Source: a virus
Length of the DNA stretch: 37,042 bases
Direction: 5' to 3' (one strand)
Virus record (IMG/VR): IMGVR_UViG_3300024272_002272
Made by a program: the position numbers and the translations under genes. The notes below the pieces were generated by a model, which saw only the letters and a program-made list of their open reading frames with translations, made no database searches and was not told where the DNA came from. Below, piece after piece: positions 5,554 through 25,385 of the stretch. The number at the start of each line of letters is the position of its first letter. Positions within the stretch are counted from its first letter, which is position 1.

Positions 5554-5633
5554 TTAATCCTCCTAGTTTTAAGTCATAGTAGACTTTAAATAATCCGAGT
5601 TTTCTTTAGTGTCTAAACAAGTAAAAAGACAAT

Positions 5634-5666: not shown

Positions 5667-5699
5667 CAAAAAAGACTATATATTATATATATTTATTCT

Positions 5700-5966: not shown

Positions 5967-6860
5967 TCAATGAAAAGGAGGCATATTTACACCAATAACT
6001 GCATCCTTAACATTAAACACCTCCCCGTCTAAATCTTGACACATTTTAGAAGTTCTTTTATCTAAAGTAGCAAGAATTTCATATTTATCAACATCACATT
6101 CTACATAAGCCTTTTGAGAAGAAGTTTCCATAAAATATGAATGCTCTGTATGTATAAGCCTTAAACAGTTTTTATAATCTGCATCTAGCTTTTTACTTAA
6201 AGCTCTTGAAGTTTCTTTAACTCCTTTACCTTGTATAATCATTTGGGTTAATTCCTGGACCATAGCATTTTTAAATTTAGTTCTATTAATCCATAAATTT
6301 TGACTATAGCTTCTACCACTCCAAGGAAAGGCCAAAATTTCTTTTATCATGTCATTATCTATATATGAAAAAGCAGCTCCAACACCTATTGATTTGTGTA
6401 TATCGAATATAGTTTGGTAGTAATTATCTTTTATAGTGCTACTGTAAGTCATTGTAAGCCTTTTATTTGTGCTTTCATATACTTCATTAATGTATTTACC
6501 ACATTGATAAAACATTTCTTCTAAACGGGAAATTCTACTTTTCATAGCTAAAGTGTTTAACTCAAGTAAAAGCTCTTCATTTCCTGTTTCTTCTATAAGT
6601 TTCATATAGGACTTTAAATCCCTTTTAAATTCTCTAAATTCACTACTATTCAAATATTTTTTTGCATCAGAATAAGATAGGTTGTTATCCTTAGCATATT
6701 TATAAAATAAATTGCTAATTTCTTTACCTATCTCATTCATAGCTTTTTTATATTCATCAACTAATTCTTTTTCTATTTTTTTTAAATCTTTTAAGCCTTT
6801 TTTAAGTTTATAAGCTTCTCTTTTTTCCCAGTATTCTTTACTAGACAAATTATTCTTCAT
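5967..6860 (-). CDS. Head morphogenesis / minor head protein (SPP1 gp7 / Mu F family), ending at an in-frame TGA
   Basis: 297-aa ORF downstream of the portal and methylase genes. It ends ...VNMPPFH* in the middle of the family motif. Confidence 0.75.
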   Translation of the reverse strand: MKNNLSSKEYWEKREAYKLKKGLKDLKKIEKELVDEYKKAMNEIGKEISNLFYKYAKDNNLSYSDAKKYLNSSEFREFKRDLKSYMKLIEETGNEELLLELNTLAMKSRISRLEEMFYQCGKYINEVYESTNKRLTMTYSSTIKDNYYQTIFDIHKSIGVGAAFSYIDNDMIKEILAFPWSGRSYSQNLWINRTKFKNAMVQELTQMIIQGKGVKETSRALSKKLDADYKNCLRLIHTEHSYFMETSSQKAYVECDVDKYEILATLDKRTSKMCQDLDGEVFNVKDAVIGVNMPPFH

Positions 6861-7890
6861 TTATAGCACCTTCTTTATTTTGTGCATTAAAAAAAGCTTC
6901 CTCAATTCTTTTAGAAGCTATATCAAAATAATTATTATCAAGTTCTATGCCTATAAATTTTCTATTGGTATTCATACAAGCTACACCAGTTGAACCACTT
7001 CCCATAAAGCAATCTAAAATTATGTCACATTTGTTAGATGATGTTTTAATTATATACTCTAATAAATCTACTGGTTTAGGAGTTATATGCCCTTGCTTTT
7101 TAGCTACTTCGTAATTCATTACAGAGTGATGTTCTTTTAAATTATTAAACGTATACCTTAAATCTTCATATTCTTGTCTTAAATCTTCATATTCTTGTCT
7201 TAAATCTTCATATGACTTATCAAAATCTAACACTTTTGATAGTACCTCGTAGTGTTTTTTTGTTATAAACTCAAATTGCTTGTAATTCTTATCTAATTTA
7301 TGTTTTAATATTGTTTTAGCACTTGCTCTATTTCTTGCTATACCGTTATCTATGTATAAATCCACAAGTCTATCATCATTATACTTGAGCCCTTTTTCCA
7401 TCAGTTTACTATAAAGATATTCTTTTATGGGCTTATAATTATCTACATCTCGTTGTACTCTATTTAATCCAGCCTCATCTTGAAAAGTATAATACAAGCA
7501 GTACTCAGCCATTTGCTTGTAATTCCTTAATCCATTTACGGCACAATGACCATCTAAATACCCTTTTAAGCTACTTCTATCAAATCTTTTATTCCATACT
7601 AGCAACTGCTTAAAAACAAAATCAGTATTATTATTTATATAATTTTGTAGTTCCACTATCTGTAAAAAGTCATTATGGAAAAAATAAAAACTACCATTAC
7701 CTTTTAATACTCTTTGGCACTCTTTAAACACTTTCCCCATGAACTCCACATACTCATTTACTGTTTTCCATTTATCCCATTTTTTATCTTTTCCTATATT
7801 GTATGGTGGGTCTATTAGTACGAGATTAACAGACTTATCTTCTATATCTTTAAATATACTTAAGCAATCCCCATTATATAATTTATACAT
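6850..7890 (-). CDS. Orphan DNA methyltransferase (N6-adenine/N4-cytosine, beta class)
   Basis: DPPY motif (VLIDPPYNIG) near the N-terminus and FMGSGSTGVA (AdoMet motif) near the C-terminus. It overlaps both neighbouring genes. Confidence 0.8.
   Translation of the reverse strand: MYKLYNGDCLSIFKDIEDKSVNLVLIDPPYNIGKDKKWDKWKTVNEYVEFMGKVFKECQRVLKGNGSFYFFHNDFLQIVELQNYINNNTDFVFKQLLVWNKRFDRSSLKGYLDGHCAVNGLRNYKQMAEYCLYYTFQDEAGLNRVQRDVDNYKPIKEYLYSKLMEKGLKYNDDRLVDLYIDNGIARNRASAKTILKHKLDKNYKQFEFITKKHYEVLSKVLDFDKSYEDLRQEYEDLRQEYEDLRYTFNNLKEHHSVMNYEVAKKQGHITPKPVDLLEYIIKTSSNKCDIILDCFMGSGSTGVACMNTNRKFIGIELDNNYFDIASKRIEEAFFNAQNKEGAINEE
7157..7213. repeat. 21-bp in-frame tandem repeat (2.7 copies) inside the methyltransferase gene
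   Basis: cttaaatcttcatattcttgt occurs at 7157-7177 and 7178-7198, with a partial copy at 7199-7213. It encodes EDLRQEYEDLRQEYEDLR. Confidence 0.9.
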
Positions 7891-9196
7891 TTATATCACC
7901 TAATTCAGAATAACTATCCTCATATAAAGAGTTAGCTTCATTCTTTTTTCTTTCTAATTCACTTGCTACATCATCAACATAAGGAGATAAAGCTAATACA
8001 GTTTCTTCTGATAATATACCTGTTAATTTTTGCATAGTATCAGCAATTTCAACTGCATTAAATGGTTTATTTCTAGTGAATATAGGTTGAATTTCCATGT
8101 AACTCATTTCACTATTAGTTTTTATTTTTAAGAAGTTACACATAAGTTCTAATCTTCTTAATAAACCTTTTTTAAACTTAGCTTCTTTAACTCCTACTAA
8201 ATTTTCTAAGGCCATTAATTTATAAGATAATGCAACTCCACTAGAATTATTAGAAAACTCACTATCATTCATATTAGGTACACAAGAAAACCTATGTATA
8301 TCATTATCTAATCTGTTTTTATAGTTTTCTAAAGCACTATCTTGGATATTCTTTATAAGATATTCGGCTTTGCCTTCATTGTCTACAAAGTTTATTATGT
8401 TTTGATTTTCTATATCTTTAGCACTTTCTTCATCCATTAAATATCCACTTATAACTAGATAAGCATGAGTAAAGCTTTCAAAGTCATTAGCACTATCGGA
8501 TTGAGTTTTATCATAAGCATCAATTAGTGGCTTAATTTTTTCAAAGTCCCCATATCTTTCATCATTATTTATGTATACTGAAACTGGTACATCTAAAAAA
8601 TAATGTGGCACTTGGTTCACAAATCTTATTGAATCTTCTTCTTTTACATAGTAGGTTATATTATTCTTATCATAAACCTCAATATGAGTTATAGTATCTT
8701 CAGTATCTATTAATTTTTCATCATAATATCTTATAGCAAATATAATATTTTCTTGAAGTGTATTATCATATGCTACTATACATTCACTAGGATCAATAGA
8801 AGCAAATCTAATATTTGTATCTTCATCAACATACATTATCTCTATACCATAACCACATATAGAAGCATTTTTAGCTAAAGTAGTATTATTATCTGCTTCA
8901 TCATTGTAAACTAATAATTCTTTTATAGTTTCAAAGTTTTCTATGTTAACATAAGATACAGGCTTACCTAAAAAATACCCAACTGCCGTATTTGTGATAT
9001 AACTTGCATAAGGGTTAGATATTTTATTTTTAGGTTTATTTCCGTTGTTATATTCTCTATAAACTATATCATTATTGTTATTGTAATAATCTTTTAATTT
9101 ATTAATTCTTTTAGCTTCTTCTTTGTGAAGCTCAAGCACATATTTAACTACATCTACTGTCATTTCTGTATCTTTATTAAGTTTAATTTTTCTCAT
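7883..9196 (-). CDS. Portal protein (SPP1 gp6-like)
   Basis: 437-aa ORF immediately after the large terminase gene. Size and synteny fit a portal. Confidence 0.8.
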   Translation of the reverse strand: MRKIKLNKDTEMTVDVVKYVLELHKEEAKRINKLKDYYNNNNDIVYREYNNGNKPKNKISNPYASYITNTAVGYFLGKPVSYVNIENFETIKELLVYNDEADNNTTLAKNASICGYGIEIMYVDEDTNIRFASIDPSECIVAYDNTLQENIIFAIRYYDEKLIDTEDTITHIEVYDKNNITYYVKEEDSIRFVNQVPHYFLDVPVSVYINNDERYGDFEKIKPLIDAYDKTQSDSANDFESFTHAYLVISGYLMDEESAKDIENQNIINFVDNEGKAEYLIKNIQDSALENYKNRLDNDIHRFSCVPNMNDSEFSNNSSGVALSYKLMALENLVGVKEAKFKKGLLRRLELMCNFLKIKTNSEMSYMEIQPIFTRNKPFNAVEIADTMQKLTGILSEETVLALSPYVDDVASELERKKNEANSLYEDSYSELGDINV

Positions 9197-11715: not shown

Positions 11716-12333
11716 TTATCCCCTTGATTTTAGTTTTGAAGCTTTGCTAAGTATCTTGGCTATATTAACTCCTGTTTTAGTCAATTCTTTATCTTTATAT
11801 ATTAATTTATTGTTGTTTAATATGAGCATTTCACTTCTTGATACTGCTATTAAATTATCTATATCAAAGTTTTGCCTGTTTCCATCTGCAAATATAACAT
11901 TGTGGTCTTTTGGAATTTCTCCATAATATTGTTCATAAACATATCTTTGTTTTAGTTTCCACGTTCTAGGATCAGCAACTTTTATTTCAATATATCCGTC
12001 TTTATTTACTCTTTCACTTCCCACTGGTCTATATTGAGGGGGCATGGTTCCTTTTTTAAAAGATGTTTTATTTGCACCCATATAGCCTTTAAGCCCTTTG
12101 TTCCAAGGTATACTTCCTTTTCTAAAGCACCCTGTAGTACCAGTAGTTAAATTATATCTATTCATAGCCCCTTTGATTTGTTGGTCTGTAAAATCATAAT
12201 TAAACTTATCTTTCATTAAATTTGCTATTTCTTTATAAGTCCTACCTTTTACAATAGAAGCTAAATATTCTTTTTCTTCTTCACTCCATTTATGAAGCCT
12301 TTTATTTTTACTCCCTTTAGGTCTACCAGTCAT
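11716..12333 (-). CDS. HNH endonuclease with an N-terminal SANT/Myb-like HTH
   Basis: HNH_3-like C-terminus (VIFADGNRQNFDIDNLIAVSRSE). The N-terminus has WSEEEKEYLASIVKG. It lies near the terminase genes. Confidence 0.7.
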   Translation of the reverse strand: MTGRPKGSKNKRLHKWSEEEKEYLASIVKGRTYKEIANLMKDKFNYDFTDQQIKGAMNRYNLTTGTTGCFRKGSIPWNKGLKGYMGANKTSFKKGTMPPQYRPVGSERVNKDGYIEIKVADPRTWKLKQRYVYEQYYGEIPKDHNVIFADGNRQNFDIDNLIAVSRSEMLILNNNKLIYKDKELTKTGVNIAKILSKASKLKSRG

Positions 12334-12337
12334 ACTA

Positions 12338-12559
12338 TTAACCCTCTAACATCTTAGGGTTTTCTTGCATATATTCAGTAGAATATTTTTTAGCTTCAAG
12401 CACAACCCTAGCATTTAATATTATTTCTTTAGCTATATTTGCTACTGCTTTGCTTCTTTCAATTTCTTCTGAAAGTTTCTCCCCTTTTATATCTTCATCA
12501 TTTAATCTTTCAAGTTGCATGAATAGGTGGTTGTTTAAATCTCCCAGTGTATTTTTCAT
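12338..12559 (-). CDS. Hypothetical protein
   Basis: 73-aa ORF in an operon context. Confidence 0.5.
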
Positions 12560-12584
12560 TTTTATATCCCTTCTTTATCTGTAT

Positions 12585-12604
12585 TACTGACTGTCAGTAC
12601 TGAC
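12585..12604. promoter_or_regulatory. Overlapping inverted repeats (TACTGAC-T-GTCAGTA / GTCAG-TA-CTGAC); a possible operator
   Basis: Read directly. It lies 26-45 nt upstream of the start of ORF 12338..12559. The loops are too short for an RNA hairpin, so a DNA-level binding site is more likely. Confidence 0.35.
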
Positions 12605-12682
12605 ATAAAATTTTTAAAAGCCTTAAACCTATTGAAAACGCTAATGCTTAAAAAAATGGCATAAAACTAGGTATTTTATGTC

Positions 12683-12916
12683 TTATTTCTTCCTGTTTTC
12701 TAATCTTTGTATCTCTCTATCTAAGTACCACATTGCTTTTTTTAAGTCCTGAACTATATCGTCTTTATGTCCTGCCCTAGATATATATTTTATGGTATTG
12801 CCTAAGTTAAATCCAAGCTCCCAATCCTCTATAACATCAATAGCTTCATATTTACCCATGTTATAATGGCTCGGGTGGTCTACCATTTCTTTTTCTTCTA
12901 TTTCAAACATTATCAT
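12683..12916 (-). CDS. DUF3310-family protein
   Basis: HPSHYN...IDVIEDW...GNTIKYISRAGHK...DLKKAMWYL matches my memory of the DUF3310 pattern. Confidence 0.65.
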   Translation of the reverse strand: MIMFEIEEKEMVDHPSHYNMGKYEAIDVIEDWELGFNLGNTIKYISRAGHKDDIVQDLKKAMWYLDREIQRLENRKK

Positions 12917-12925
12917 ATCTTCCCC

Positions 12926-13105
12926 CTACTTATCTTTATAGTGCCTTATATATGTATTAACCCTGTTAGCTTCTTGTATTATCCTACACAAAGTATCTTG
13001 AACCTTAAAAGACATATAGCCTTCTTCATTCTGTTCATTTAATACATCAGCTAAAGAGTTTATTTTTTCTACTATCTCACTATATCTTTCAAAATTAAAC
13101 CCCAT
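12926..13105 (-). CDS. Hypothetical 59-aa protein
   Basis: Hand translation: MGFNFERYSEIVEKINSLADVLNEQNEEGYMSFKVQDTLCRIIQEANRVNTYIRHYKDK*. GGGGG RBS. It fills the gap between SSB and DUF3310. Confidence 0.5.
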   Translation of the reverse strand: MGFNFERYSEIVEKINSLADVLNEQNEEGYMSFKVQDTLCRIIQEANRVNTYIRHYKDK

Positions 13106-13124
13106 GACTTATACCCCCTATTAA

Positions 13125-13523
13125 TTAGAAAGGTATCTCGTCATTGTCTACTTCTTGAAATTCTGTAAATTCTAAAGTATTTGTATTAGATTTATTTTCA
13201 GTATTATTATTGCTGCTTAAAAATTCTAATCTATCAACTTTTACTTTAGTAAAGCTTCTTTTCTCTCCGTCTTTTTCGTACTGATCTATATTTAATTCAC
13301 CTTCAACTAATATAGATTTTCCTTTAGTTATATATTGGCATAATTTTTCTGTATGCTGCCCCAGCATTTCACAGTTTATAAAATCAACTTTTTTATTATT
13401 TTTATCCTTTTGATAATTTCTTTCTACGGCTAAAGAAAAAGTCATTTTTGGAGTGCCTGTTGCTCCTATAAATCCTAATTCTGCATCTCTAGTTGTTCTT
13501 CCAGTTAATACTACTTTGTTCAT
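13125..13523 (-). CDS. ssb: Single-stranded DNA-binding protein
   Basis: OB-fold-like N-terminus (MNKVVLTGRTTRDAEL...) and an acidic C-terminal tip (DNDEIPF). Confidence 0.85.
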   Translation of the reverse strand: MNKVVLTGRTTRDAELGFIGATGTPKMTFSLAVERNYQKDKNNKKVDFINCEMLGQHTEKLCQYITKGKSILVEGELNIDQYEKDGEKRSFTKVKVDRLEFLSSNNNTENKSNTNTLEFTEFQEVDNDEIPF

Positions 13524-13602
13524 CTTCTATTCTCCTTTTCACTTATAAATATTGCCATCTTAATAATTAGATAACACATTAATATAAACTTTATAATTCT
13601 CA

Positions 13603-13929
13603 TTACTTCATCATATGTTTGTACTTATTCATAAAATAATCCTTGAACTTCTCATGCTCTTGTTCTGACCAAAAGTCAATTTTTACCCCTATGTTTTTGC
13701 TCCACCTCTCAGATTCTAAAGCAAAGTATGGTGCAAGGATTATGCTATTGTATTTAGCTTTTTTTTCAGCTTCTTCTTTTTCTATAACTTTATTAAATAT
13801 ATTATACTTCCACACATATTGGTTAAGTGCATAAGCTAATAACTTATCATTAACTGTTTCTACAGGAACTACAAAATCCCCTTTTTGTTTTTCTATATGA
13901 TTAAATATTATATCTGCTTGACTTTTCAT
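13603..13929 (-). CDS. Hypothetical protein (108 aa from the internal ATG)
   Basis: The ATG at 13929 is preceded by AAGGGGAG. The longer ORF-track start at 13986 would overlap the upstream gene. Confidence 0.5.
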   Translation of the reverse strand: MKSQADIIFNHIEKQKGDFVVPVETVNDKLLAYALNQYVWKYNIFNKVIEKEEAEKKAKYNSIILAPYFALESERWSKNIGVKIDFWSEQEHEKFKDYFMNKYKHMMK

Positions 13930-13945
13930 TTTACTCCCCTTGATT

Positions 13946-14188
13946 TTATTTATATGTCTTTTTATAGGCCTTCCAAATACTTTCAATAAGTTCAGATTTG
14001 GTCATCTTTTTTTTGTTTGCAAAATCTTCAATATCTTTTTCAATACTCTCATCTAAATTTATTCTATTTAGCCCTTTGTTTATTAACTTGCATAGCATAT
14101 AGTTAATACTTCTTTCTTCTACCTCTGAAATATCTTTTACTTTATCAAATATTTCTTCATCTATTCTTAATAAGAAGCTCTTTTTCAA
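13946..14188 (-). CDS. Ribbon-helix-helix (CopG/Arc-like) protein
   Basis: 80 aa. TTG start with a GGAGGTG RBS. The N-terminus KKSFLLRIDEEIFDKVKDISEVEERSINYML resembles an RHH beta-strand plus helix. Confidence 0.5.
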   Translation of the reverse strand: MKKSFLLRIDEEIFDKVKDISEVEERSINYMLCKLINKGLNRINLDESIEKDIEDFANKKKMTKSELIESIWKAYKKTYK

Positions 14189-14299
14189 TTAATCACCTCC
14201 ATAATATCATATTGATATTATATTAATATTATATCATATTTTTACAAAATTATATATATTTTATGTTTACTTAATAATTATTTATTGGTATTATTTAAC

Positions 14300-14396
14300 A
14301 TGGTAGCAAAACCTAGTATATAAAATATTTTGTACGATTTAATCATATCTCTTCGCTACCTTAGGAATCTATCATCTTTTAGGTGGTAGATTTTTT
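14300..14396 (+). ncRNA. Candidate about 97-nt plus-strand small RNA convergent with cas12f (possible tracrRNA or antisense regulator)
   Basis: Promoter: TTTACT (14266-14271), 17 nt, TATTAT (14289-14294). Terminator: UCUAUCAUCU-UUU-AGGUGGUAGA plus U6 (14368-14396); its two G-U pairs would be C-A mismatches on the other strand. Internal GGTAGC/GCTACC pairing. Positions 14312-14326 resemble part of the CRISPR repeat. Confidence 0.4.
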
Positions 14397-14401
14397 AATA
14401 T

Positions 14402-14427
14402 AAAAAAGACTAGGATTAACCTAGTCT
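14402..14427 (-). terminator. Rho-independent terminator of the cas12f-like gene
   Basis: Minus sense: AGACUAGG-UUAAU-CCUAGUCU followed by UUUUU. The stem overlaps the TAG stop codon. Confidence 0.6.
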
Positions 14428-15634
14428 ATTTAATAAAATCTTCACTTCTAGCAATATTTATACTTGCATTATGGTCTGCATTTAATTCAAAACCACATTT
14501 AGTACATTTAAACTTTTCTTGAGTTTGCCTATTTTCTTTATCTATATGCCCACACTTACTGCAAGTTTGACTTGTGTAAGCTGGATTAACATATCTCACT
14601 TTTATACCTATTCTATTTGCTTTATACTCCACCATTCTTTGAAGTTCATAATAACTCCAATTCCTTAGTATACTATCATTGAAACCATCTTTAGTTAATT
14701 TCTCCATATTAATATATTGGCATTTATATTTTTTAGCAAATTCAATTATTCTTTTACTTATCATGTGGTTATATGTTTTAGCAAAATTCCTCTCACATTC
14801 ACTTAATCTATTTAGATTTTTTAATTTTTTACCTCTACCCTTGCCACCTTTGACATTTTTTAATTGTTGTTGCGTTCTATTCCTTCTATCTTGGTATTGT
14901 TTACGTTGCTTTATAAGTTCTAGTGCTTCTCCTATATGTTCTCTTTTGTGGGTATCATCATTTAAGCACACATAAGCTGGATATTTAACTCCTAAATCAA
15001 CGCCTAAAACCCTGCCTTCTATAAATAATTCTTCTTGTTTAAATGGTATATCTAAGGTTAAATTAAGTATTAAATTATTATTTTTATCAAATTCCAAACT
15101 ACTTTGCATTACTTTATATTCTTTATTTAATATCTTCTGTAATGTATGTTGAAGTTCTAAAGTATTTTCTTTTCTAGCATTAAATACAACTTTGAAAATT
15201 ATTTTATTTACCCACTTTATAAGTATTTCTCCGTCTTGTTCATAAAATGTTAAATTTCTACCTCTAGTCATTAATGGAAAGTTTCTTTTATAGTTTATAG
15301 AACTTCTTTCGCCTTTAGCTAAACCATTTTTTAAAGATGTGCTAAAATCTTTTTTCACTTTTTGAGTTACTGCTGATAAGGTGTCTATTCCCTTTCCTAA
15401 CTCTAAGTCTTTAAATATAGGATTAGAATTTTTAAAATTCTTTTGATGTTCTTTAAAACCTTCTGATTTTATATCTCTATTGTTTGCAAGATAACCAGTC
15501 ATTATATACCCCATACCTAAATTAAGTGCTTGATACTGTGCATATTGGCTATCTCTTATAAATTTATATTGTTGCTTTCTTAGTTCTTCATTTTCATTCA
15601 CTATTATTAATTTTAATTTTCTAACAGTAATCAT
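14426..15634 (-). CDS. cas12f: Miniature type V effector, Cas12f (type V-F)/TnpB-like RuvC nuclease, 402 aa
   Basis: RuvC-I GVD(213)LGV, RuvC-II INME(311)KL, RuvC-III NAD(387)HNASINIA, and a CxxC...CxxC zinc finger (C358/C361/C377/C380). From memory, blocks such as INYKRNFPL, GGKGRGKK...NF..T.NH and NWSYYELQ...YKA...GIKV...P.YTSQ.CS.CG are collinear with AsCas12f (422 aa). The ATG at 15634 has a GGAAAGGA RBS. It is adjacent to a CRISPR array. Confidence 0.8.
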   Translation of the reverse strand: MITVRKLKLIIVNENEELRKQQYKFIRDSQYAQYQALNLGMGYIMTGYLANNRDIKSEGFKEHQKNFKNSNPIFKDLELGKGIDTLSAVTQKVKKDFSTSLKNGLAKGERSSINYKRNFPLMTRGRNLTFYEQDGEILIKWVNKIIFKVVFNARKENTLELQHTLQKILNKEYKVMQSSLEFDKNNNLILNLTLDIPFKQEELFIEGRVLGVDLGVKYPAYVCLNDDTHKREHIGEALELIKQRKQYQDRRNRTQQQLKNVKGGKGRGKKLKNLNRLSECERNFAKTYNHMISKRIIEFAKKYKCQYINMEKLTKDGFNDSILRNWSYYELQRMVEYKANRIGIKVRYVNPAYTSQTCSKCGHIDKENRQTQEKFKCTKCGFELNADHNASINIARSEDFIK

Positions 15635-15650
15635 AATTTTAATCCTTTCC

Positions 15651-15677
15651 AATAAAAAAAGGTCATAAAGACCTTTT
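15651..15677 (-). terminator. AT-rich hairpin plus U-tract between the array and cas12f (a weak terminator or processing element)
   Basis: Minus sense: AAAAGGUC-UUUAU-GACCUUUU followed by UUUAUU. It lies 17 nt upstream of the cas12f ATG. Confidence 0.35.
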
Positions 15678-15719
15678 AAAAACACATAATTTATAAAACT
15701 ATACACAGAGTTGCGATAT

Positions 15720-16068
15720 GTTTACCTATCACATAGTTAATATAAAACCTTTTAATATTACTAAATCCTTTGCTTCTATCAAATTCACATACCACATAGC
15801 TAATATAAAACTAATAATTACTTTGATATAAAAGAAGTTGTTTACAAATTCACATACCACATAGTTAATATAAAACAGTTATTTTTTCAGTTAATTTTTC
15901 TTGTATTAATACGTTTACATACCACGTAGTTAATATAAAACAAGCCACTTATAAAACTTCTTAGAAGCTAAATAAAGTTTACATACCACGTAGTTAATAT
16001 AAAGCTCAATATAATGGCTCATATATATAATAAAAAAAGGAATTTACATACCACGCAATATTTAAAAC
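15720..16068 (-). CRISPR. CRISPR array, 6 repeats (29 nt; the last is 27 nt) and 5 spacers (34-36 nt)
   Basis: Repeats on the plus strand: 15720-15748 gtttacctatcacatagttaatataaaac; 15783-15811 and 15848-15876 attcacataccacatag(c/t)taatataaaac; 15913-15941 gtttacataccacgtagttaatataaaac; 15977-16005 the same but ending aagc; 16042-16068 atttacataccacgcaatatttaaaac. The strand was assigned because the reverse complement ends ...GTGGTATGTAAAC, like Cas12f repeats (...GTGGAGTGTGAAC in AsCas12f, from memory), and is co-oriented with the cas gene. Confidence 0.85.
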
Positions 16069-16165
16069 TATGTGATTTATCGAGTGTTATAAGTAGTGAG
16101 TTGGTCTTAACCTTCACATTTTACCTTATACCTCAACCTTCGGACAGTAAATTGCCCGTATGTGT
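16069..16165 (-). ncRNA. GC-enriched block abutting the array; candidate leader-proximal structured RNA or tracrRNA
   Basis: About 38% GC by hand count (37 of 97 nt), with much more AT-rich flanks. A TATAAT (minus sense) lies at 16190-16195 upstream. There is no ORF. I found no clear anti-repeat. Confidence 0.3.
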
Positions 16166-16234
16166 TTTTATTTAATTTTATATATTAATATTATATCCAA
16201 AATAAAAATAAGTATACTTGTAAGTATTGGCAAT

Positions 16235-16259
16235 AAAAAAAGCTACTTATTCAGTAGCT
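16235..16259 (-). terminator. Rho-independent terminator of ORF 16247..16444
   Basis: Minus sense: AGCUACU-GAAUA-AGUAGCU followed by UUUUUUAUU. It isolates the CRISPR cassette from upstream transcription. Confidence 0.6.
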
Positions 16260-16444
16260 AATAATTCTCTAATAAATTCTATCTCTTTTATTATATTGTC
16301 CCTTTCGTGCCAAATCTTAAATTTATTTTTTTTCACATCATCCCAAATAAAGTCATGTTCTCTTGCCCATGCTTCAGCTTTATCAAGCCTATCTAATAGC
16401 TTTTGATATTCTAATAATAATTTATTTCTATCAACACTATCCAT
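16247..16444 (-). CDS. Hypothetical protein (65 aa)
   Basis: ORF whose ATG overlaps the stop of the upstream small ORF (ATGGATAG). Confidence 0.5.
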   Translation of the reverse strand: MDSVDRNKLLLEYQKLLDRLDKAEAWAREHDFIWDDVKKNKFKIWHERDNIIKEIEFIRELLATE

Positions 16445-16595
16445 TATTAACTCTCCTATACTTAACCTCCCTAGGTTTGCTTAAATATTTTTCAAGTTCT
16501 TCTTTAGTTAAAGTATAAGTTTTAAGCTCTCCCACAGTTTCATTTTTATAAGTATATTTTAATTCTATATCGTGTCCCCATTCTGACTGTACCAT
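16437..16595 (-). CDS. Hypothetical protein (52 aa)
   Basis: Hand translation: MVQSEWGHDIELKYTYKNETVGELKTYTLTKEELEKYLSKPREVKYRRVNNG*. AAGGGGGA RBS. Confidence 0.5.
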   Translation of the reverse strand: MVQSEWGHDIELKYTYKNETVGELKTYTLTKEELEKYLSKPREVKYRRVNNG

Positions 16596-16608
16596 TGGTT
16601 AATCCCCC

Positions 16609-18435
16609 TTAAATGTTCTCCCAACTATCTATATTTATCTGCTCTAAGTTTTGCATAAAATAATCAACTTCTAATTCTTCACCATTACCGTTTTTACAAT
16701 AGAATCTTCTTCTGTCTTTATCAAATAACAACTCTATGCCTATATTAACTCCCATATATCTATCTTTATTTATAGTTAATGTAGTATGTTTATCTGTTCC
16801 ATCTTCTTCATATACCCTTTGAACTATCATTACATAGTCAGCTAAGTTTGTTATATTAGCACTTCCTGATATATCTGATTTATCAAGTCCAATTTGACCA
16901 TTTTGTGCTTTTCTTGGATGTGCTACTAAGTGAACTATACAATTATATTTTTTAGCAAAACTTTTTAGTTTTTTAACTATTTCTGTTTGATTTCTTAACT
17001 CTTCTTTTTCATCATTTTCAGTAACCATTAAGTTATCTATGCAAAATACTTTTACACCGTATCTTTTGGCCATAATTTCCATTTTAGATATAATTGCATT
17101 TATACTATAATCTTCCTCTGTATATAAATAAAATTTATCTTCTAAAAAATCATCTATTCTACTAACTGCATTTGATGAAAGTTTTTTATATTTATATCCT
17201 TTTTTACTTGTAAATTCTAGCAAATCTTCTTTATTTGCAAGTGTATCTAATAGCCACCCTTTAGCATTACTTTCTGTAAGTTCTCCACTAAATAAAAACA
17301 CTTTATATCCTTGCCTTATGCTTTCACCTATGAAAAATTGATTTAGAATAGTTGATTTTCCTTCACCAGTTCGCCCAGTAATTACATTTAAGCTTCCCAA
17401 AGGTAAACCAATCATTCTATCATCTATTTTACTTATTCCTAATTGAACTGTTTCGGCTTCATATATATTAAAAGTTGATATTTGCTTTGTACTTTTAACC
17501 CCATCAACTAAAGGTGTTGAAGCTTTTTCAAGTTGTTTTAATACTGCTAGCTTACCATACTTAAATAATAATTCATTTATATCGTTGCATATATCAGAAT
17601 AAACTACTTTTACAACCTTATTAGGTAACCTATTAAATACTTCTTTTACTCCTTCTTTTCCTGCTTCGTCATTATCGTACCAAAGAATAACTTCCTCAAA
17701 TTGTTCTAACCAAGTCCAGTTGGTAGTTATCCATTCAGTAGACTTACAACCAGTAGGAACTGATACCGAATTTTTATATCCAGCTTCTATTAATGAAAGT
17801 GCATCAAATTCACCCTCGCATATTACAAGTGGCTTAGTTATATCAGCTTTATCCATAAGGTATAAAGTATTTATGTTTGTTTCAGATTCAAACCACATTT
17901 TTAATTCTTTTTTGTCTTTATTTATTTTCCTAGCAGGTCTATATTTATTTGTTATATGTTCTCCTAGCTCATTTTTATAAACAAATACTATATTGCCTTT
18001 ATTATCTTCTTTTACATCTGCATATTTTAAGGTGCTTTCAGTTATACATCTTTTATTTATATAATTAATAGTTTTAGATATATCATTTTTGTAAATTGTA
18101 GGGGCTTTTATAGGCTTTCTTTCTGTTTTAATGATTAATTTATCAGTTGATATATTAAAATCCGTTACAATTGATTTTATAGCTTCTATATATGACTTGT
18201 TATAGTATTCTTTATAGTGGTCTATTATGTTATAAGTTGCCCCACAACTAAAACATCTAAAAGTTTTTCCTTTCATATCAAAACTCATTGATGGAACTTT
18301 TTCACTATGTTTAAAACATAAACATTTATTGTTTTTATCTAATTTTAAGCACAAATCAGAAGTTATTTTATTTTTGACTTCTTCTGCTCTTATTTGAATC
18401 TGAATATCTTCCCTAATCTTTTTTATATCAATCAT
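16609..18435 (-). CDS. Bifunctional primase-helicase (zinc-finger primase, Toprim and a DnaB/RecA-type helicase)
   Basis: CHC2-like zinc finger (CLCFKH...CFSCG), Toprim motifs (VICEGEFDALSL, WYDNDEAGKEG), and Walker A GRTGEGKST. Confidence 0.85.
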   Translation of the reverse strand: MIDIKKIREDIQIQIRAEEVKNKITSDLCLKLDKNNKCLCFKHSEKVPSMSFDMKGKTFRCFSCGATYNIIDHYKEYYNKSYIEAIKSIVTDFNISTDKLIIKTERKPIKAPTIYKNDISKTINYINKRCITESTLKYADVKEDNKGNIVFVYKNELGEHITNKYRPARKINKDKKELKMWFESETNINTLYLMDKADITKPLVICEGEFDALSLIEAGYKNSVSVPTGCKSTEWITTNWTWLEQFEEVILWYDNDEAGKEGVKEVFNRLPNKVVKVVYSDICNDINELLFKYGKLAVLKQLEKASTPLVDGVKSTKQISTFNIYEAETVQLGISKIDDRMIGLPLGSLNVITGRTGEGKSTILNQFFIGESIRQGYKVFLFSGELTESNAKGWLLDTLANKEDLLEFTSKKGYKYKKLSSNAVSRIDDFLEDKFYLYTEEDYSINAIISKMEIMAKRYGVKVFCIDNLMVTENDEKEELRNQTEIVKKLKSFAKKYNCIVHLVAHPRKAQNGQIGLDKSDISGSANITNLADYVMIVQRVYEEDGTDKHTTLTINKDRYMGVNIGIELLFDKDRRRFYCKNGNGEELEVDYFMQNLEQINIDSWENI

Positions 18436-19157
18436 AACATTTCAACCTTTCTTGTATATTTGCCCCCATTATTGCATATATTAGGATTAACTAAATTATT
18501 ATTTTGAGTACCTGCTCCAACAGGTGCTTTTTTATTTGCTTCATTTAAATAATTTTCAAATTTTCCACCAAACAAAGTTGCTGGTCTTAAATACTTTTCA
18601 AAATCTGTTCCTAACCATTCTTTGCTTTTGTTATCTATAACTTTTTTAAAGTCATCTACTGTAAACCCTTCTTTTACTCTAGCATTTATTAAACTTTGAG
18701 TATTTTTAGTATTTATCCTGTAACTTGTATTGGCTTTTATGTTTAAATAATCAATAACAACACTATATATATTATTATTTTTATCTTTATTCTTTGATAG
18801 TGTTGCCCCATTGTTGCCCTTTTGTTGCCCCTTAGTATCGTCAACTTGTTGCAATTCCTCGTTTTTATTTGCCCCATTGTTGCCGAATAGCTGCCCTTTA
18901 ATTGTTATCTCTAAAGTGCTTTCTTTGCCTTTGCAACCAGCTTTTACAGGTTTAATATATCCCTCTTTTTCAAATTTCTTTAATATATTTCTAACTTTCT
19001 TAGTAGTAAGATTTAATCTTTCATCAGAATTTACAACTAATTGATTAACTGTATATCCTGCTATATTTGTGTCATAATTACAATGTTTATTTAATTGTTT
19101 CCAAACGTCATATTCTTCAAGTGTAAATGACTGCAATGTTATAAAATATTGCTCCAT
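18432..19157 (-). CDS. Replication initiator / replisome organizer (Phg_2220_C-like C-terminal domain)
   Basis: The C-terminus ...YLNIKANTSYRINTKNTQSLINARVKEGFTVDDFKKVIDNKSKEWLGTDFEKYLRPATLFGGKFENYLNE matches the conserved phage C-terminus / DnaD-like pattern. The gene contains iterons. Confidence 0.7.
   Translation of the reverse strand: MEQYFITLQSFTLEEYDVWKQLNKHCNYDTNIAGYTVNQLVVNSDERLNLTTKKVRNILKKFEKEGYIKPVKAGCKGKESTLEITIKGQLFGNNGANKNEELQQVDDTKGQQKGNNGATLSKNKDKNNNIYSVVIDYLNIKANTSYRINTKNTQSLINARVKEGFTVDDFKKVIDNKSKEWLGTDFEKYLRPATLFGGKFENYLNEANKKAPVGAGTQNNNLVNPNICNNGGKYTRKVEML
18787..18897. repeat. Phased iteron array inside the initiator gene (candidate phage origin)
   Basis: TTGCCC(C/T)-type motifs start at 18803, 18814, 18825, 18869, 18880 and 18891, all congruent modulo 11. 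They have the same 3 + gap + 3 layout as 5716-5821. Confidence 0.75.
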
Positions 19158-19171
19158 GTTATTCCCCCCAG

Positions 19172-19351
19172 TTAGCTTAATAAATCGTCATAAGTTACTT
19201 CAAATAATTCTTTTATAAGTTTTACTTCATCTATTGTAAATTTACTTTTCCCAAGTTCTTTATCAGAATAAGTATTTTGTTTTATACCTAGTAATTCAGC
19301 TATTTCCCTTTGAGTATACCCCTTAATAGTCCTATACTCTTTAATTTTCAT
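19172..19351 (-). CDS. XRE-family HTH transcriptional regulator (59 aa)
   Basis: MKIKEYRTIKGYTQREIAELLGIKQNTYSDKELGK is an HTH_3 pattern. The ATG at 19351 has a GGTGGTG RBS. Confidence 0.7.
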   Translation of the reverse strand: MKIKEYRTIKGYTQREIAELLGIKQNTYSDKELGKSKFTIDEVKLIKELFEVTYDDLLS

Positions 19352-19443
19352 TTCTTCACCACCTAACACTTTGTTATGTTTTTATCACTTTAATATATTA
19401 TATCGAATTAACCGATAAATATTGCAAAGTTTCGTTAGACAAA

Positions 19444-19470
19444 TAAAATAAAAAAGCTACTAAAGTAGCT
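19444..19470 (-). terminator. Terminator hairpin after the ERCC4 nuclease gene
   Basis: AGCUAC-UUUA-GUAGCU flanked by A and U runs. The minus sense is followed by UUUUUUAUUUUAUUU. Confidence 0.5.
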
Positions 19471-19471
19471 T

Positions 19472-20080
19472 TTATTCGACACCTTTCAAATATTCTCTCG
19501 CGTGAACATATAAAAGATCATGGATTATTCTAGCAGAATCCTTCTTATTGCAGTACCAAACATTAATATCATATCTATTACACAAGCTTAAAAACATCAT
19601 CATAAAGCTTTTAGGATTTATTTTTGAAGCTTTATCATATCTAAAATGTTTACTACTTAATATCTTACTTATAACATCTTCAGTTTCAATTAATAAATGT
19701 ATCTTAATACCTTTTTCTTTTGCTTTTAAAAACTCTCTCTCTATTCTTGTAAGCCCGTTTTCATCTTTACTTTTAGAATCATAAAAATTTGATGCTAACT
19801 CATTTAGATCAGCTTTTCTTTCAATAACTATCTTATCTTGAAAATTAATAACTTCTCCACTTGGTAACTGTACCGCTATAGTATAATCTCCAACTTTTAG
19901 TCCTTTTTCTTGGATGTAATATTGTACTGGGTCTGAATAAGTTGATTTTTTCCCCCTATACATATCATGGTGGCTAGGTTTATTTTCAAACCCTTCATCA
20001 AATTTATTTAGTATGTGATTTTGTATCTTTTTTTCTCTTGTATCTATAATTATTTTGTATTTGCATTTCTTTATATCCAT
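19472..20080 (-). CDS. ERCC4-domain (XPF/Mus81/Hef-like) nuclease
   Basis: Motifs IIIDTREKK, LKVGDYTI and IVIERKADLNELASN (the ERK...DL..S signature). Confidence 0.65.
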   Translation of the reverse strand: MDIKKCKYKIIIDTREKKIQNHILNKFDEGFENKPSHHDMYRGKKSTYSDPVQYYIQEKGLKVGDYTIAVQLPSGEVINFQDKIVIERKADLNELASNFYDSKSKDENGLTRIEREFLKAKEKGIKIHLLIETEDVISKILSSKHFRYDKASKINPKSFMMMFLSLCNRYDINVWYCNKKDSARIIHDLLYVHAREYLKGVE

Positions 20081-22570: not shown

Positions 22571-23506
22571 CTATTGTTTTATATTATTCTTTAAAAGCTT
22601 ATCTATTTCATCTTCCTCTAAATACATTATTTGAGTTTCAATAATTCCGTTCTTATTTTTAACTTTACATCTACCATCTATTTTTATATCTTGTAAGTTT
22701 TGATTTTTGCCTATCAAGGTATTACTATCAGTTTCATCAAATGTTTTTAATCCTATAACTTGAGGGCAATTCATTTTACATTTACCAATTGTTTCTTTTG
22801 TTGCATCTTGCCCACCTAATATAAAATAAATGCCATATTTCCTGCATTTGCCCATTATTCTATGAAGTTCGCTTTTGCATATGCTATCAGTTGCAAACTG
22901 AACTAATTCATCAACTATAACAACTATATAACTCATTTTTTTATCATGCTTTTTATTATAATTTATTGCATTTCTACAATTAGTTTCATCAAATATTTCT
23001 GCTCTTTCTTTCATCTTATCTTCTAGTATTCTCACTATGTCTAAAAAGCCTTCTTTGTCTGTTGCCATTCTTTTAAAATGCTTATATCTTCTAAAATAAT
23101 ATATATCACTTTCAGTATAATCACACCCAAGCATAAAAACTTCATTCTCTGTATAGGTAAGCATTATATTAGTTATAATTACGTTTAATAAATTAGACTT
23201 TCCTGCTCCTGTCATTCCTCCGATTAATATATGCCCATCTAAAATATTTAAAACAACTTCATTGCCTTCTAAATCATATCCTATACATACTTTAATTCCT
23301 TCTTTTTCACCTTCTACAAAGCTATATTTTATAAAATCTTCATTGCTTTCTTTTTCATTTAATTCGGTTGGTATATATTCATATTTAATTATATTGTCTA
23401 CATCAATTTCTTTTTCTTTGTCTTTTGCAGATGAAATAATATTTAAACTGTAACCTATTGCCCCACTCATAACTCCAATTAAAAAGCTCTCTAAAAGCAT
23501 TGGCAC
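22571..23506 (-). CDS. FtsK/SpoIIIE-family ATPase with an N-terminal transmembrane segment
   Basis: Walker A ILIGGMTGAGKSN, Walker B YIVVIVDEL, and YGIYFILGGQ. The N-terminus LLESFLIGVMSGAIGYSL is hydrophobic. Confidence 0.7.
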   Translation of the reverse strand: MPMLLESFLIGVMSGAIGYSLNIISSAKDKEKEIDVDNIIKYEYIPTELNEKESNEDFIKYSFVEGEKEGIKVCIGYDLEGNEVVLNILDGHILIGGMTGAGKSNLLNVIITNIMLTYTENEVFMLGCDYTESDIYYFRRYKHFKRMATDKEGFLDIVRILEDKMKERAEIFDETNCRNAINYNKKHDKKMSYIVVIVDELVQFATDSICKSELHRIMGKCRKYGIYFILGGQDATKETIGKCKMNCPQVIGLKTFDETDSNTLIGKNQNLQDIKIDGRCKVKNKNGIIETQIMYLEEDEIDKLLKNNIKQ

Positions 23507-24419: not shown

Positions 24420-25385
24420 TTAATTAAATTTTAATTTATCTTCAACATATTTAACTACATCATCAGATAACAAGTCCGTCTTTTCAAATCCTACTCCACC
24501 ATTGGTTAAATCGTATTTAACTTCATTTCCACCATTAAAATTGCCTTCTATGTAATCCTTAATGGTTAATTTTAAGCCTTCCCCTACGTTTTTCAATGCT
24601 GAACTTATAATGTTTTCTGATAAATAGCTCATTGGCATATCTACACCAATTCCTTTTACATTGTCGGCTTCATTTATTGCTTCGATGATGCCCATGTTGC
24701 CACCACCTGTTGCCATGAATATTATATCTGAATTTGAATTAATCATTTGCTGGGCAACTATCTTAGCCTTAGAAGCATCAGTAAATGAGTTTATATATTG
24801 CTTTAATACTTTTACATTAGGATTAACTTCTTTTGCCCCCTCTATATAACCTTCAAAGAATGGAGTTAATGAAGGTATATCGAATCCCCCTATGCAAGAT
24901 ATAACATTAGTTTCAGTCATTTTACCTGCAATTAATCCAACTAAATATCCTGCCTCTTTCTCGTTGAATGTTATAGGTCTTACATTCTTAGGAATTTCTT
25001 TCCCAGCTTCATATGATGAATCTATCATTACAAAATCTTGATTTGGGTAAGATTCTACTGCTTCTTTTATTGCATCTGATACTTGGAAGCCTACACCAAC
25101 AATTAAATCTGTATCTCTATCTATAAAAGTTTCTATATTTGGAGTATAGTCTGCATCACTTTGACTTTCTAAATATGAAACCTCTACACCATATTCTTCT
25201 TGTGCTTTTAATGCCCCTTCCCATGCAGATTGATTAAAGCTTTCATCATTTACCCCACCGACTGAAAGGACTAATCCTACCTTATAATTTTCTTTTTCTG
25301 TACTTGCATTATCTTTTTTAGCACATCCCCATGCACCTACTGCAACAACAGTAGACAATAATAATACTTTAACTTTTTTTATCAT
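24420..25385 (-). CDS. BMP-family (PnrA/Med-like) substrate-binding lipoprotein
   Basis: Signal peptide with a lipobox-like VGAWGC. The body (VGLVLSVGGVNDESFNQSAWEGA...GVGF...) resembles basic membrane protein / nucleoside-binding ABC substrate-binding proteins. Confidence 0.7.
   Translation of the reverse strand: MIKKVKVLLLSTVVAVGAWGCAKKDNASTEKENYKVGLVLSVGGVNDESFNQSAWEGALKAQEEYGVEVSYLESQSDADYTPNIETFIDRDTDLIVGVGFQVSDAIKEAVESYPNQDFVMIDSSYEAGKEIPKNVRPITFNEKEAGYLVGLIAGKMTETNVISCIGGFDIPSLTPFFEGYIEGAKEVNPNVKVLKQYINSFTDASKAKIVAQQMINSNSDIIFMATGGGNMGIIEAINEADNVKGIGVDMPMSYLSENIISSALKNVGEGLKLTIKDYIEGNFNGGNEVKYDLTNGGVGFEKTDLLSDDVVKYVEDKLKFN

Follow-up and report, generated by a model that had tools for sequence, protein, structure and literature searches.

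The window, i.e., the whole stretch of 37,042 nucleotides that was analysed (IMG/VR record IMGVR_UViG_3300024272_002272), carries a complete type V-F1 (V-U3) CRISPR-Cas12f cassette, which constitutes a 1.8-kb phage accessory module (Clostridioides/Clostridium-like host, ~28% GC). Its parts are all on the minus strand, with the tracrRNA leading into the CRISPR array and the array into cas12f:

14408-16232, minus strand: whole cassette (tracrRNA, CRISPR array and cas12f), 1.8 kb, absent in the sister phage L002
16205-16233, minus strand: promoter-like site TTGCCA-17-TATTTT upstream of the tracrRNA, a weak candidate from a consensus scan
16055-16165, minus strand: predicted tracrRNA scaffold, conserved in 11 cassette copies
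16157-16154 with 16145-16142, minus strand: predicted tracrRNA hairpin, GGGC paired with GTCC, loop AUUUAC at 16152-16147
16074-16066, minus strand: predicted anti-repeat CACAUAGUU, complementary to the repeat segment AACUAUGUG
16042-16054, minus strand: half repeat GTGGTATGTAAAT, contiguous with the tracrRNA 3' end, from alignment with L021, L004 and L016
16006-16041, minus strand: spacer 5, first transcribed, TCCTTTTTTTATTATATATATGAGCCATTATATTGA; target not found
15977-16005, minus strand: repeat, GCTTTATATTAACTACGTGGTATGTAAAC
15942-15976, minus strand: spacer 4, TTTATTTAGCTTCTAAGAAGTTTTATAAGTGGCTT; self match of 15/15 at 3457-3471
15913-15941, minus strand: repeat, GTTTTATATTAACTACGTGGTATGTAAAC
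15877-15912, minus strand: spacer 3, GTATTAATACAAGAAAAATTAACTGAAAAAATAACT; target not found
15848-15876, minus strand: repeat, GTTTTATATTAACTATGTGGTATGTGAAT
15812-15847, minus strand: spacer 2, TTGTAAACAACTTCTTTTATATCAAAGTAATTATTA; self match at 6919-6937
15783-15811, minus strand: repeat, GTTTTATATTAGCTATGTGGTATGTGAAT
15749-15782, minus strand: spacer 1, TTGATAGAAGCAAAGGATTTAGTAATATTAAAAG; target not found
15720-15748, minus strand: terminal, degenerate repeat, GTTTTATATTAACTATGTGATAGGTAAAC
15657-15677, minus strand: terminator-like hairpin with T-run between array and cas12f; an equivalent hairpin follows the L020 and L021 arrays
14426-15643, minus strand: cas12f, 405 aa from the ATG at 15643, ribosome-binding site GGAAAGGA upstream, with PADLOC and PDB matches
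14407-14427, minus strand: terminator after cas12f, right edge of the cassette

Gene, guide RNA and mobility of the cassette

The listed open reading frame of cas12f starts at an upstream GTG (15706). In PADLOC, the product is matched over its full length by both Cas12f (PDLC01699, E = 2.4e-143) and Cas12u3 (E = 3.9e-134), and in the PDB by RhCas12f1 (9NZP, E = 1.3e-120, full length) and CnCas12f1 (8HR5, E = 1.5e-115), while the best passing NCBIfam model is guided_TnpB. The RuvC and zinc-ribbon motifs are intact, with GVDLG, INMEKL, NADHNAS and two CxxC conserved, and the protein has the make-up of a type V-F1 effector, i.e., a small TnpB-like protein with a split RuvC and a zinc ribbon. By these matches and motifs, it is a full-length Cas12f1 nuclease of type V-F1 (formerly V-U3), closest to RhCas12f1 and CnCas12f1. 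Many of the Cas12f homologues with 90–96% identity are themselves full-length; among the isolated phages in INPHARED there is no close one, the best being TnpB-like genes of 34–44% identity. The array stops 77 nt short of the cas12f ATG on the same strand, and a same-strand array of the same repeat family adjoins the gene in 11 of the 12 viral loci with a full-length homologue (60–89% amino acid identity). The same arrangement is present in L020, L021, L041 and L069.

The conserved tracrRNA is found here and in L004-L008, L014-L017 and L021, and RNAalifold places 28 pairs in it, 16 of them with compensatory changes. Its AUUUAC loop is complementary to the repeat 3' end GUAAAU, and anti-repeat and repeat change in concert, CACATAG being matched by CTATGTG here and CACTTAG by CTAAGTG in L006-L015. 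A tracrRNA with a repeat-pairing anti-repeat, as befits type V-F1, is thereby predicted computationally. No Rfam family matched the window in a gathering-threshold scan, and promoter-like sites in the window are not enriched over shuffles, so that 16205-16233 is only a candidate. The five spacers had been given with correct coordinates and sequences in an earlier note on this DNA. What was there called a degenerate sixth repeat (16042-16070) aligns to the tracrRNA 3' end plus half repeat of the relatives, and is really the tracrRNA 3' end followed by the last 13 nt of a repeat. Both the tracrRNA and the cas12f gene adjoining the array had been overlooked in that note.

The cassette behaves as a unit. 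In L002 (~90% identical), the equivalents of window positions 16233 and 14407 are directly joined; L004 has the same cassette in the same context; L016 and L017 retain it there as a decayed remnant; and L021, an SPbeta-like phage, has it in another phage background. Its parts are bounded by three terminators and cas12f is its sole gene: the cassette has no cas1, cas2 or cas4, their absence from the locus being a hallmark of V-U3 (PMC7229846). Nor did a scan of the window ORFs, not all of the small ones included, reveal other cas genes, those scanned having phage functions or no defence-profile match. Megablast of window positions 12000-20000 against INPHARED returned no match, and a portal-based search of GTDB genomes returned no relatives. 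The system is of an already-known kind, of which the window locus is a further member.

Proposed expression, spacer acquisition and link to the host type I-B machinery

The explanation that, taken whole, is probably correct combines a Cas12f cassette of functional type, self matches that arose by chance and putative targets in other phages. A promoter upstream of 16165 would yield a minus-strand transcript in which a structured tracrRNA of ~110 nt precedes the array. The tracrRNA would pair twice with each repeat, once via the loop (AUUUAC-GUAAAU) and once via the anti-repeat (CACAUAGUU-AACUAUGUG), and the 405-aa Cas12f, as a dimer by analogy with solved relatives, would use approximately the first 20 nt of the spacer and cut DNA with a 5'-CCW PAM. 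Against this explanation, the searches returned no target for any of the five spacers, the function of the array being read from its relatives; there is no I-B-type leader, and five of the six repeat units differ mutually; and a terminator-like hairpin stands between the array and cas12f, for which the promoter scan gave no clear promoter.

The connection to type I-B comes from several directions. In L020 and L021, the cassette repeat has exactly the sequence found in C. difficile chromosomal arrays; compared to it, the window repeats carry 1–2 nt differences. The leader motifs ACTGCAA, ATTGRAA and TTWGG are common to the sister cassette arrays and the chromosomal arrays; in a comparison of leaders, they are absent from the window array, where the tracrRNA abuts the half repeat instead. 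In Clostridium sp. CCUG 7971, a Cas1b gene is adjoined by an array whose repeat is near-identical, and two spacers of that array match the window phage. We infer that the spacers were loaded in trans by the host I-B Cas1-Cas2-Cas4, which would explain both the 34–36 nt spacers and the I-B-like PAM; a borrowing of I-B adaptation by V-F1 systems has been independently proposed (preprint 10.1101/2024.04.09.587696). Given the missing leader and the heterogeneous repeats, the window array may itself be frozen or decaying.

Given the closeness of the repeats to I-B, host Cascade could be the user of the array, or a second one. Transcripts might be shared, with both host Cas6b/Cascade and the phage's own Cas12f-tracrRNA processing them and interference ensuing whether the host I-B interference module is intact or not. 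The co-occurrence of I-B-type repeats and PAM with a Cas12f-specific tracrRNA is consistent with this, as is the overlap of the CCD/CCN PAM of Cas12f relatives with the CCW PAM of I-B; however, the case is inferential throughout, and the heterogeneity of the window repeats may impair recognition by Cas6b, leaving such double use a tentative proposition. A wider conjecture, which we would advance with similar reserve, is that phage Cas12f cassettes mimic I-B repeats and leaders, such that host Cas1-Cas2-Cas4 loads CCW-flanked spacers and the transcripts are read by Cas12f-tracrRNA as well as Cascade. In the lineage of the window and L004, where the leader has been lost, the fusion of tracrRNA, half repeat and spacer would then represent a natural single-guide RNA, reminiscent of TnpB omega RNA.

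That the cassette is instead a decaying relic devoid of current function seems unlikely. In its favour are the lack of a leader, repeats that are heterogeneous and in the last case degenerate, the failure to find a target for any spacer, and the clearly decayed copies in L016 and L017; yet the cas12f ORF is full-length and retains every catalytic and zinc-binding motif, the tracrRNA is intact with its helices kept via compensatory changes, and full-length homologues at 90–96% identity are many.

Self matches of two spacers and the search for targets

Two of the spacers resemble genes of the phage itself:

6919-6937, plus strand: 18/19 near-match to spacer 2, inside the N6/N4 DNA methylase gene (PF01555); judged chance
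3457-3471, minus strand: 15/15 near-match to spacer 4, inside the head-tail adaptor gene (phrog_615); judged chance

From these the earlier note had proposed, as the source of the protospacers, homologues of the two genes in related phages or mobile elements, the resident copies escaping. The matches were re-found as described, with 18/19 identities between spacer 2 (plus sense) and the reverse complement of 6919-6937, and 15/15, codon-aligned, between spacer 4 (minus sense) and that of 3457-3471. That they are in frame, which was offered as support, carries no weight, since whatever matches a gene in nucleotides is bound to share the frame of that gene. Shuffled or Markov-generated spacers set against the window give P = 0.07–0.14 per match and P = 0.01–0.02 for the two jointly, but such nulls ignore the structure of real sequences. 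A null made of 865 real spacers from unrelated host arrays was scored against the window, with a GC-matched subset of 234 spacers (GC ≤26%). Local scores of at least 15 are attained by 11% of this subset and scores of at least 16 by 3.8%; the real-spacer null gives P = 0.10 for two or more of five spacers at ≥15, and P = 0.18 for one or more of five at ≥16. Thus, the self matches are what chance would produce in such an AT-rich composition (P ~0.1 with GC-matched real spacers), a possibility that the note had itself raised.

The form of the matches points the same way. Both consist of a single exact block and then near-random sequence, whereas diverged homologues would be expected to display wobble-spaced mismatches. 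Spacer 2 is matched at its positions 18–36, the PAM-distal end, with 1/17 identities outside the exact block, and its peptide (..YFDIKEVVY) diverges from that of the window's methylase (..YFDIASKRI) right after the common block. The spacer 4 peptide (YLASK-K-FYKWL) is without the near-invariant P, Y and S-H of the adaptor family, which has the motif G..[YF].A[SG][KE]-P-F.Y.SH.E across ~270 homologues; its self site has the 5' flank CTA, not CCW, and a mismatch at spacer position 2. In a relative, L003, the same spacer is matched 17/17 at a non-homologous place (4023-4039). The self matches would not license cleavage, as one is PAM-distal and the other has no PAM and a mismatch at position 2. 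No better match occurs at the same sites in the sister phages L001 and L002 (~90% identical), and no protein among the 5.8 billion searched with the spacer-encoded peptides has three shared 5-residue words. On these comparisons, the methylase and adaptor matches are coincidental, at the chance level for such AT-rich DNA. The lesson is that when an AT-rich spacer is compared to an AT-rich genome, matches of 15–19 nt are no evidence of targeting.

It is accordingly improbable that spacers 2 and 4 were taken from methylase and adaptor homologues of related phages, with the carrier escaping by virtue of own copies that differ over half the spacer. The codon-aligned matches do exist, their joint probability is low against the shuffled nulls, the CTA flanks in the phage's own genes resemble a PAM-escape variant of C. 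difficile (PMC4173771), and each of the two spacers has a related, independently acquired counterpart in L004. This is countered by the GC-matched null, the L003 site, the adaptor residues missing from the spacer 4 peptide, the early departure of the spacer 2 peptide from the methylase, the outcome of the protein search and the absence of a DNA match from every collection searched. The L004 counterparts nevertheless argue for real, recurrent targets of spacers 2 and 4: spacer 4 matches L004 spacer 3 at 21/25 with an offset of 11 nt, CCA there standing immediately ahead of the position equivalent to the spacer 4 start, and the reverse complement of spacer 2 matches L004 spacer 5 at 25/35 with wobble-type differences.

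Full-length matches in relatives, which the earlier note had suggested seeking by BLAST, did not emerge, there being nothing better than the self matches in INPHARED, PLSDB, IMG/VR and JGI metagenomes, although searches of this type are poor at detecting a target whose mismatches are scattered. Nothing above chance was returned by blastn of the window spacers against INPHARED and PLSDB, by all five spacers as exact 24-mers in IMG/VR, or, in JGI metagenomes, by patterns that allowed for codon degeneracy in spacers 4 and 2. The sole match of a broader degenerate pattern in IMG/VR is the L004 spacer itself, and blastn-short against 92 fetched loci gave no target for any of the five. A homologue of a 187-aa protein of L006 was weighed as a candidate target of spacer 2. 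This protein, which falls in no Pfam family and lacks a homologue in the window, has a C-terminus (NDNILDIRE) resembling the NNYFDIKE of spacer 2, at a nucleotide identity of only ~20/33.

Sister-cassette spacers match other cassette-bearing phages at 28–31 of 36–37 nt, and one matches Clostridioides phage pCD5401_3 at 37/37. CCA or CCT is found immediately 5' of five of six sister-cassette protospacers, the 37/37 match included, the chance of CCW at a single site being ~0.015. By analogy, the likely targets of the window array are competing phages or phage-plasmids, the targeting being shown in sister cassettes only. The general idea of inter-phage targeting is thus plausible for the window array and gains from the sister-cassette spacers, whereas the self near-matches fall away as evidence for it.

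Relation to known systems

RhCas12f1 (Ruminiclostridium herbifermentans) and CnCas12f1 (Clostridium novyi) are homologous to the protein described here (405 aa against 415 aa in RhCas12f1), and their systems are alike in the RuvC and zinc-ribbon motifs, tracrRNA, adjoining array and lack of adaptation genes. For RhCas12f1, nuclease activity, a 5'-NCCD PAM and an optimal guide of 20 nt have been reported (PMC10090079); the putative CCW PAM here fits both NCCD (PMC10090079) and the C-rich PAM class (PMC7229846). In contrast to those systems, which reside on bacterial chromosomes, the present one is a cassette gained and lost on a phage genome of roughly 40 kb, and in it the tracrRNA is followed without a gap by a half repeat and the first spacer.

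Arrays in C. difficile (pro)phages have the same repeat family, the same CCA/CCT PAM and spacers that match other phages (PMC4173771). They were read as host-served type I-B, whereas an intact Cas12f gene stands beside the array here and in the prophage loci L009-L012; the 'partial transposase gene' reported beside those arrays (PMC4173771) may be a cas12f remnant. The corresponding reading of the window, an orphan I-B array used only by host Cascade-Cas3 with a TnpB transposon nuclease landed nearby, is very improbable. It can draw on repeats (nearly) identical to the chromosomal I-B ones, 34–36 nt spacers and a CCW PAM as in C. difficile I-B (PMC4173771), the I-B-type leaders of the sister arrays and guided_TnpB as the best passing NCBIfam model. 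However, gene and array stay adjacent even where homologues are only 60% identical and where the phage backgrounds are unrelated, they are accompanied by a conserved structured RNA whose anti-repeat covaries with the repeat, the protein has full-length Cas12f profile matches as well as matches to the experimentally active RhCas12f1 and CnCas12f1, there is no TnpA gene among the window ORFs examined, and gain or loss affects the unit as a whole. What the window shares with an orphan I-B array is the repeat; it has no I-B leader next to the first repeat, and a cognate effector lies alongside.

Viral CRISPR mini-arrays, which rely on host Cas proteins (reviewed in PMC11656645), are likewise virus-borne, with host-type repeats, no adaptation genes and related viruses as their usual targets. 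The phage here differs in supplying an effector and tracrRNA of its own, and in the number of spacers, five as opposed to one or two. TnpB of IS200/IS605 elements, with its omega RNA, is a homologous RuvC nuclease of ~400 aa guided by a structured RNA, but the guides here come from a CRISPR array, not a transposon end, and the scaffold RNA, which in TnpB elements overlaps the gene 3' end, here lies upstream of the array, the cassette ending in a terminator 18 nt past the cas12f stop codon. An IS605-type transposon carrying an array was rejected on the placement of the scaffold RNA, the full-length Cas12f profile matches and the lack of a TnpA gene among the listed window ORFs.

The value of Cas12f1 (V-U3) systems as miniature genome editors is recognised, but their natural biology is poorly known, notably how spacers are gained without adaptation genes. 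The window locus and its relatives display such a system as a 1.8-kb mobile phage module. Having repeats, leader motifs, spacer length and PAM in common with host I-B renders the hypothesis of borrowed adaptation directly testable. These cassettes also suggest that some 'orphan' C. difficile prophage arrays belong to, or descend from, Cas12f cassettes.

A phage-borne CRISPR-Cas12f cassette

The main feature of this part of the window, lying just outside the coordinates singled out in the earlier note, is a complete phage-borne CRISPR-Cas12f cassette (14408-16232, minus strand). The ORF adjoining the array codes for 405 aa from a probable ATG start at 15643, with the RBS GGAAAGGA 5' of it. It is matched over its full length by the PADLOC profiles for Cas12f (E = 2.4e-143) and Cas12u3 (E = 3.9e-134), contains the Pfam domain Cas12f1-like_TNB, and matches the structures of RhCas12f1 (9NZP, E = 1.3e-120, full length) and CnCas12f1 (8HR5, E = 1.5e-115), with the RuvC motifs GVDLG, INMEKL and NADHNAS and both CxxC pairs intact. 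These relatives actively cut dsDNA under RNA guidance and recognise C-rich 5' PAMs (PMC10090079, PMC7229846, PMC13186708), RhCas12f1 using the PAM NCCD and a 20-nt guide (PMC10090079). V-U3/Cas12f1 systems have already been described from Clostridia and Bacilli (PMC7229846), type V cas12f from a C. difficile mobile region (PMC10806358), and virus-encoded effectors resembling V-F1/V-U3 from metagenomes (PMC12607003).

The genes of the window are all on the minus strand, on which the 29-nt direct repeat reads GTTTTATATTAACTAYGTGGTATGTRAAY; between the repeats lie five spacers of 34-36 nt. The third component is the guide scaffold:

16165-16055, minus strand: tracrRNA, 5' of the array; the block is richer in GC and kept in eleven copies of the cassette

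Of the 28 pairs in its consensus fold, 16 show compensatory changes. The loop of a hairpin, AUUUAC, complements GUAAAU at the end of the repeat, and the 3' segment CACAUAGUU complements the repeat segment AACUAUGUG; in the sister cassettes L006-L015 the repeat has AACTAAGTG and the anti-repeat CACTTAGTT, i.e., a compensatory change across two separate elements. This complementarity and the accompanying change tie the array to the Cas12f-tracrRNA machinery. What had been taken for a sixth repeat (16042-16070) is actually the tracrRNA 3' end fused to the last 13 nt of a repeat, a junction also present in L004 and L016, while in L021 and L005-L015 a leader of ~150-190 nt separates tracrRNA and array. 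Terminator-like hairpins occur before the cassette, in the array/cas12f gap and after cas12f (3 found against 0.4 expected). In the sister cassette L005, cas12f comes first and two tracrRNA-like copies (7237-7391, 8043-8148) flank the array, one directly after the last repeat; thus, the cassette layout has been rearranged between lineages.

Mobility and genomic setting

The window is the genome of a tailed phage, circularly permuted, and its genes include those for terminase, portal, MuF, adaptor, tape measure, baseplate, endolysin and replication. Over window 19160-3296 the sister phage L002 is collinear at ~88-92% identity, and in it the equivalents of 16233 and 14407 are joined directly, with no cassette between them. 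At the same spot the sister phage L003 has 2.3 kb of other genes (383-2724, the exact cassette position: four small genes of 60-286 aa, function unknown), and L004 has a cassette in the same context as the window. Homologues are found at 90-94% identity in L021, an SPbeta-like phage that has Yon genes, and at 66-67% in prophage contigs of C. difficile with a flank resembling phage CDKM15; among the isolated phages of INPHARED no close homologue of this Cas12f was found. In two loci the cassette is reduced to its scaffold and the final 51 codons of cas12f:

L016 685-1096 and L017 5782-6193: decayed cassettes with tracrRNA scaffold, half repeat, one spacer-like segment and cas12f end

Sequence comparison thus indicates that the cassette is a mobile accessory module, and the place where it is inserted is apparently a hotspot of accessory cargo. 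The spacer-like segment of the decayed copies corresponds, once reverse-complemented, to L005 spacer 7 (30/38), with AGG beside it (CCT on the other strand), a likeness that may reflect cross-targeting between cassettes or a shared target.

Further genes of the minus strand include a Bmp/PnrA-like ABC-transporter substrate-binding lipoprotein (24420-25385; PF02608, E = 4.8e-68), an FtsK/SpoIIIE-like ATPase (22571-23506; PF01580) and an HNH_3 endonuclease (11716-12333), encoded ~1.2 kb upstream of the terminase genes. L020 and L021 likewise have a Bmp-family gene (319 aa), ~2 kb away from their Cas12f cassette, and it may be a moron gene travelling with the cassette.

Self matches and the origin of spacers 2 and 4

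Two spacers resemble genes of the phage itself, with positions, identities and genes just as the earlier note gave them:

15812-15847, spacer 2: matches 6919-6937 at 18/19, within the PF01555 DNA methylase gene
15942-15976, spacer 4: matches 3457-3471 at 15/15, codon-aligned, in the phrog_615 head-tail adaptor gene

The first match takes in spacer positions 18-36, at the PAM-distal end, and beyond the exact block only 1/17 positions are identical; the second site has CTA at the PAM position. These features speak against an origin of the spacers in homologues of the two genes. Within the methylase ORF (6850-7890), 21 nt are repeated perfectly in tandem (2.7 copies, 7157-7213), giving a 7-residue repeat in frame.

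With shuffled or Markov-generated spacers as the null, P is 0.07-0.14 for either match and 0.01-0.02 for both jointly; since such nulls take no account of how real sequence is structured, empirical ones were built. Of 84 sister-cassette spacers scored against the window, 3.6% reached a local score of at least 15, their GC being 30% as against 20% for the window spacers. For the second null, host arrays of many Bacillota supplied 865 distinct spacers; 17-20% reached that score where spacer GC was <20% and 7% where it was 20-26%. For those with GC <=26% (n = 234) the rate was 11% at a score of at least 15 and 3.8% at 16 or more, giving P = 0.10 for two or more of five spacers at the former and P = 0.18 for at least one of five at the latter. 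Thus, the self matches are real, yet at the level expected by chance in AT-rich sequence, which the earlier note itself had named as grounds against reading them as a targeting signal.

That note had further suggested that the protospacers lie in methylase and adaptor homologues of related phages or mobile elements. Spacer 4 matches the adaptor genes of the ~90% identical sister phages at 16/16 (L001) and 14/14 (L002), close to the 15/15 at the self site, with no full-length match in either, and it matches L003 at 17/17 in a place non-homologous to the self site (4023-4039). Across 120 close and 150 diverse adaptor homologues, the segment at the spacer 4 site forms the conserved motif G..[YF].A[SG][KE]-P-F.Y.SH.E, whose near-invariant P, Y and S-H are absent from the spacer 4 peptide YLASK-K-FYKWL. 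Among 5.8 billion proteins, none had three 5-residue words in common with the spacer 2 and 4 peptides or their L004 counterparts, and DNA searches of INPHARED, PLSDB, IMG/VR and JGI metagenomes gave no match above chance. Given the chance-level matches, the motif mismatch and these empty searches, an origin in such homologues is unsupported.

A different relationship emerges with the cassette of L004:

L004 about 5547-5680: spacers 5 and 3, paired with window spacers 2 and 4

Spacer 2 agrees with L004 spacer 5, in opposite orientation, at 25/35, the differences sparing second codon positions (NNYFDIKEVVY vs DNYFEIKEIIY); spacer 4 agrees with L004 spacer 3 at 21/25 with an 11-nt offset, and CCA directly precedes the equivalent of the spacer 4 start. 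Both similarities exceed all 7,832 shuffled comparisons, which points to independently acquired spacers against related targets in two cassettes and would imply that one target family has been sampled repeatedly at the same sites.

Targets, PAM and spacer loading

Spacers of sister cassettes match other phages that bear a cassette, 28-31 of 36-37 nt being identical, and one spacer (L011, 7424-7460), whose array adjoins cas12f on a prophage contig of C. difficile, agrees with Clostridioides phage pCD5401_3 (CP069347.1, 465-501) at 37/37, next to a CCA PAM. CCA or CCT lies directly 5' of the protospacer (crRNA sense) in 5/6 cases, the chance of CCW at a single site being ~0.015, and its position fixes the direction of transcription. 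Such a PAM agrees with that of the Rh/CnCas12f1 class as well as with that of type I-B in C. difficile (CCA/CCT; PMC4173771). Inter-phage targeting by the cassette array, the general idea of the earlier note, is therefore plausible on this independent evidence from relatives; the self near-matches lend it no support. C. difficile prophage arrays are known to match other phages, with a 'partial transposase gene' adjoining them (PMC4173771).

The repeat core is found in arrays of many Bacillota, and the cassette repeat of L020/L021 is identical to that of C. difficile chromosomal arrays. Leader-bearing cassette arrays and chromosomal arrays have in common the motifs ACTGCAA (~-70), ATTGRAA (~-30) and TTWGG (-1), and in Clostridium sp. 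CCUG 7971 (L049) an array of near-identical repeats adjoins a Cas1b gene. One spacer of this array matches window 2687-2722 at 31/36 with the flank CTA, a PAM escape variant according to Hargreaves 2014 (PMC4173771); a second matches 12546-12567 at 21/22 over its first 22 nt, with the flank CCC. These two matches suggest the host lineage. From the shared repeats and leader motifs, the Cas1b-adjacent array and the lack of adaptation genes in the cassette, we infer that spacers would be loaded in trans by host I-B Cas1-Cas2-Cas4, an idea already present in a preprint on the basis of co-occurrence and PAM statistics (10.1101/2024.04.09.587696).

Viral mini-arrays against related viruses are likewise an established concept (PMC11656645); less familiar are two features, the mimicry of I-B-type leaders and repeats throughout the cassette family and, in the lineage of the window, the joining of the tracrRNA to a half repeat.
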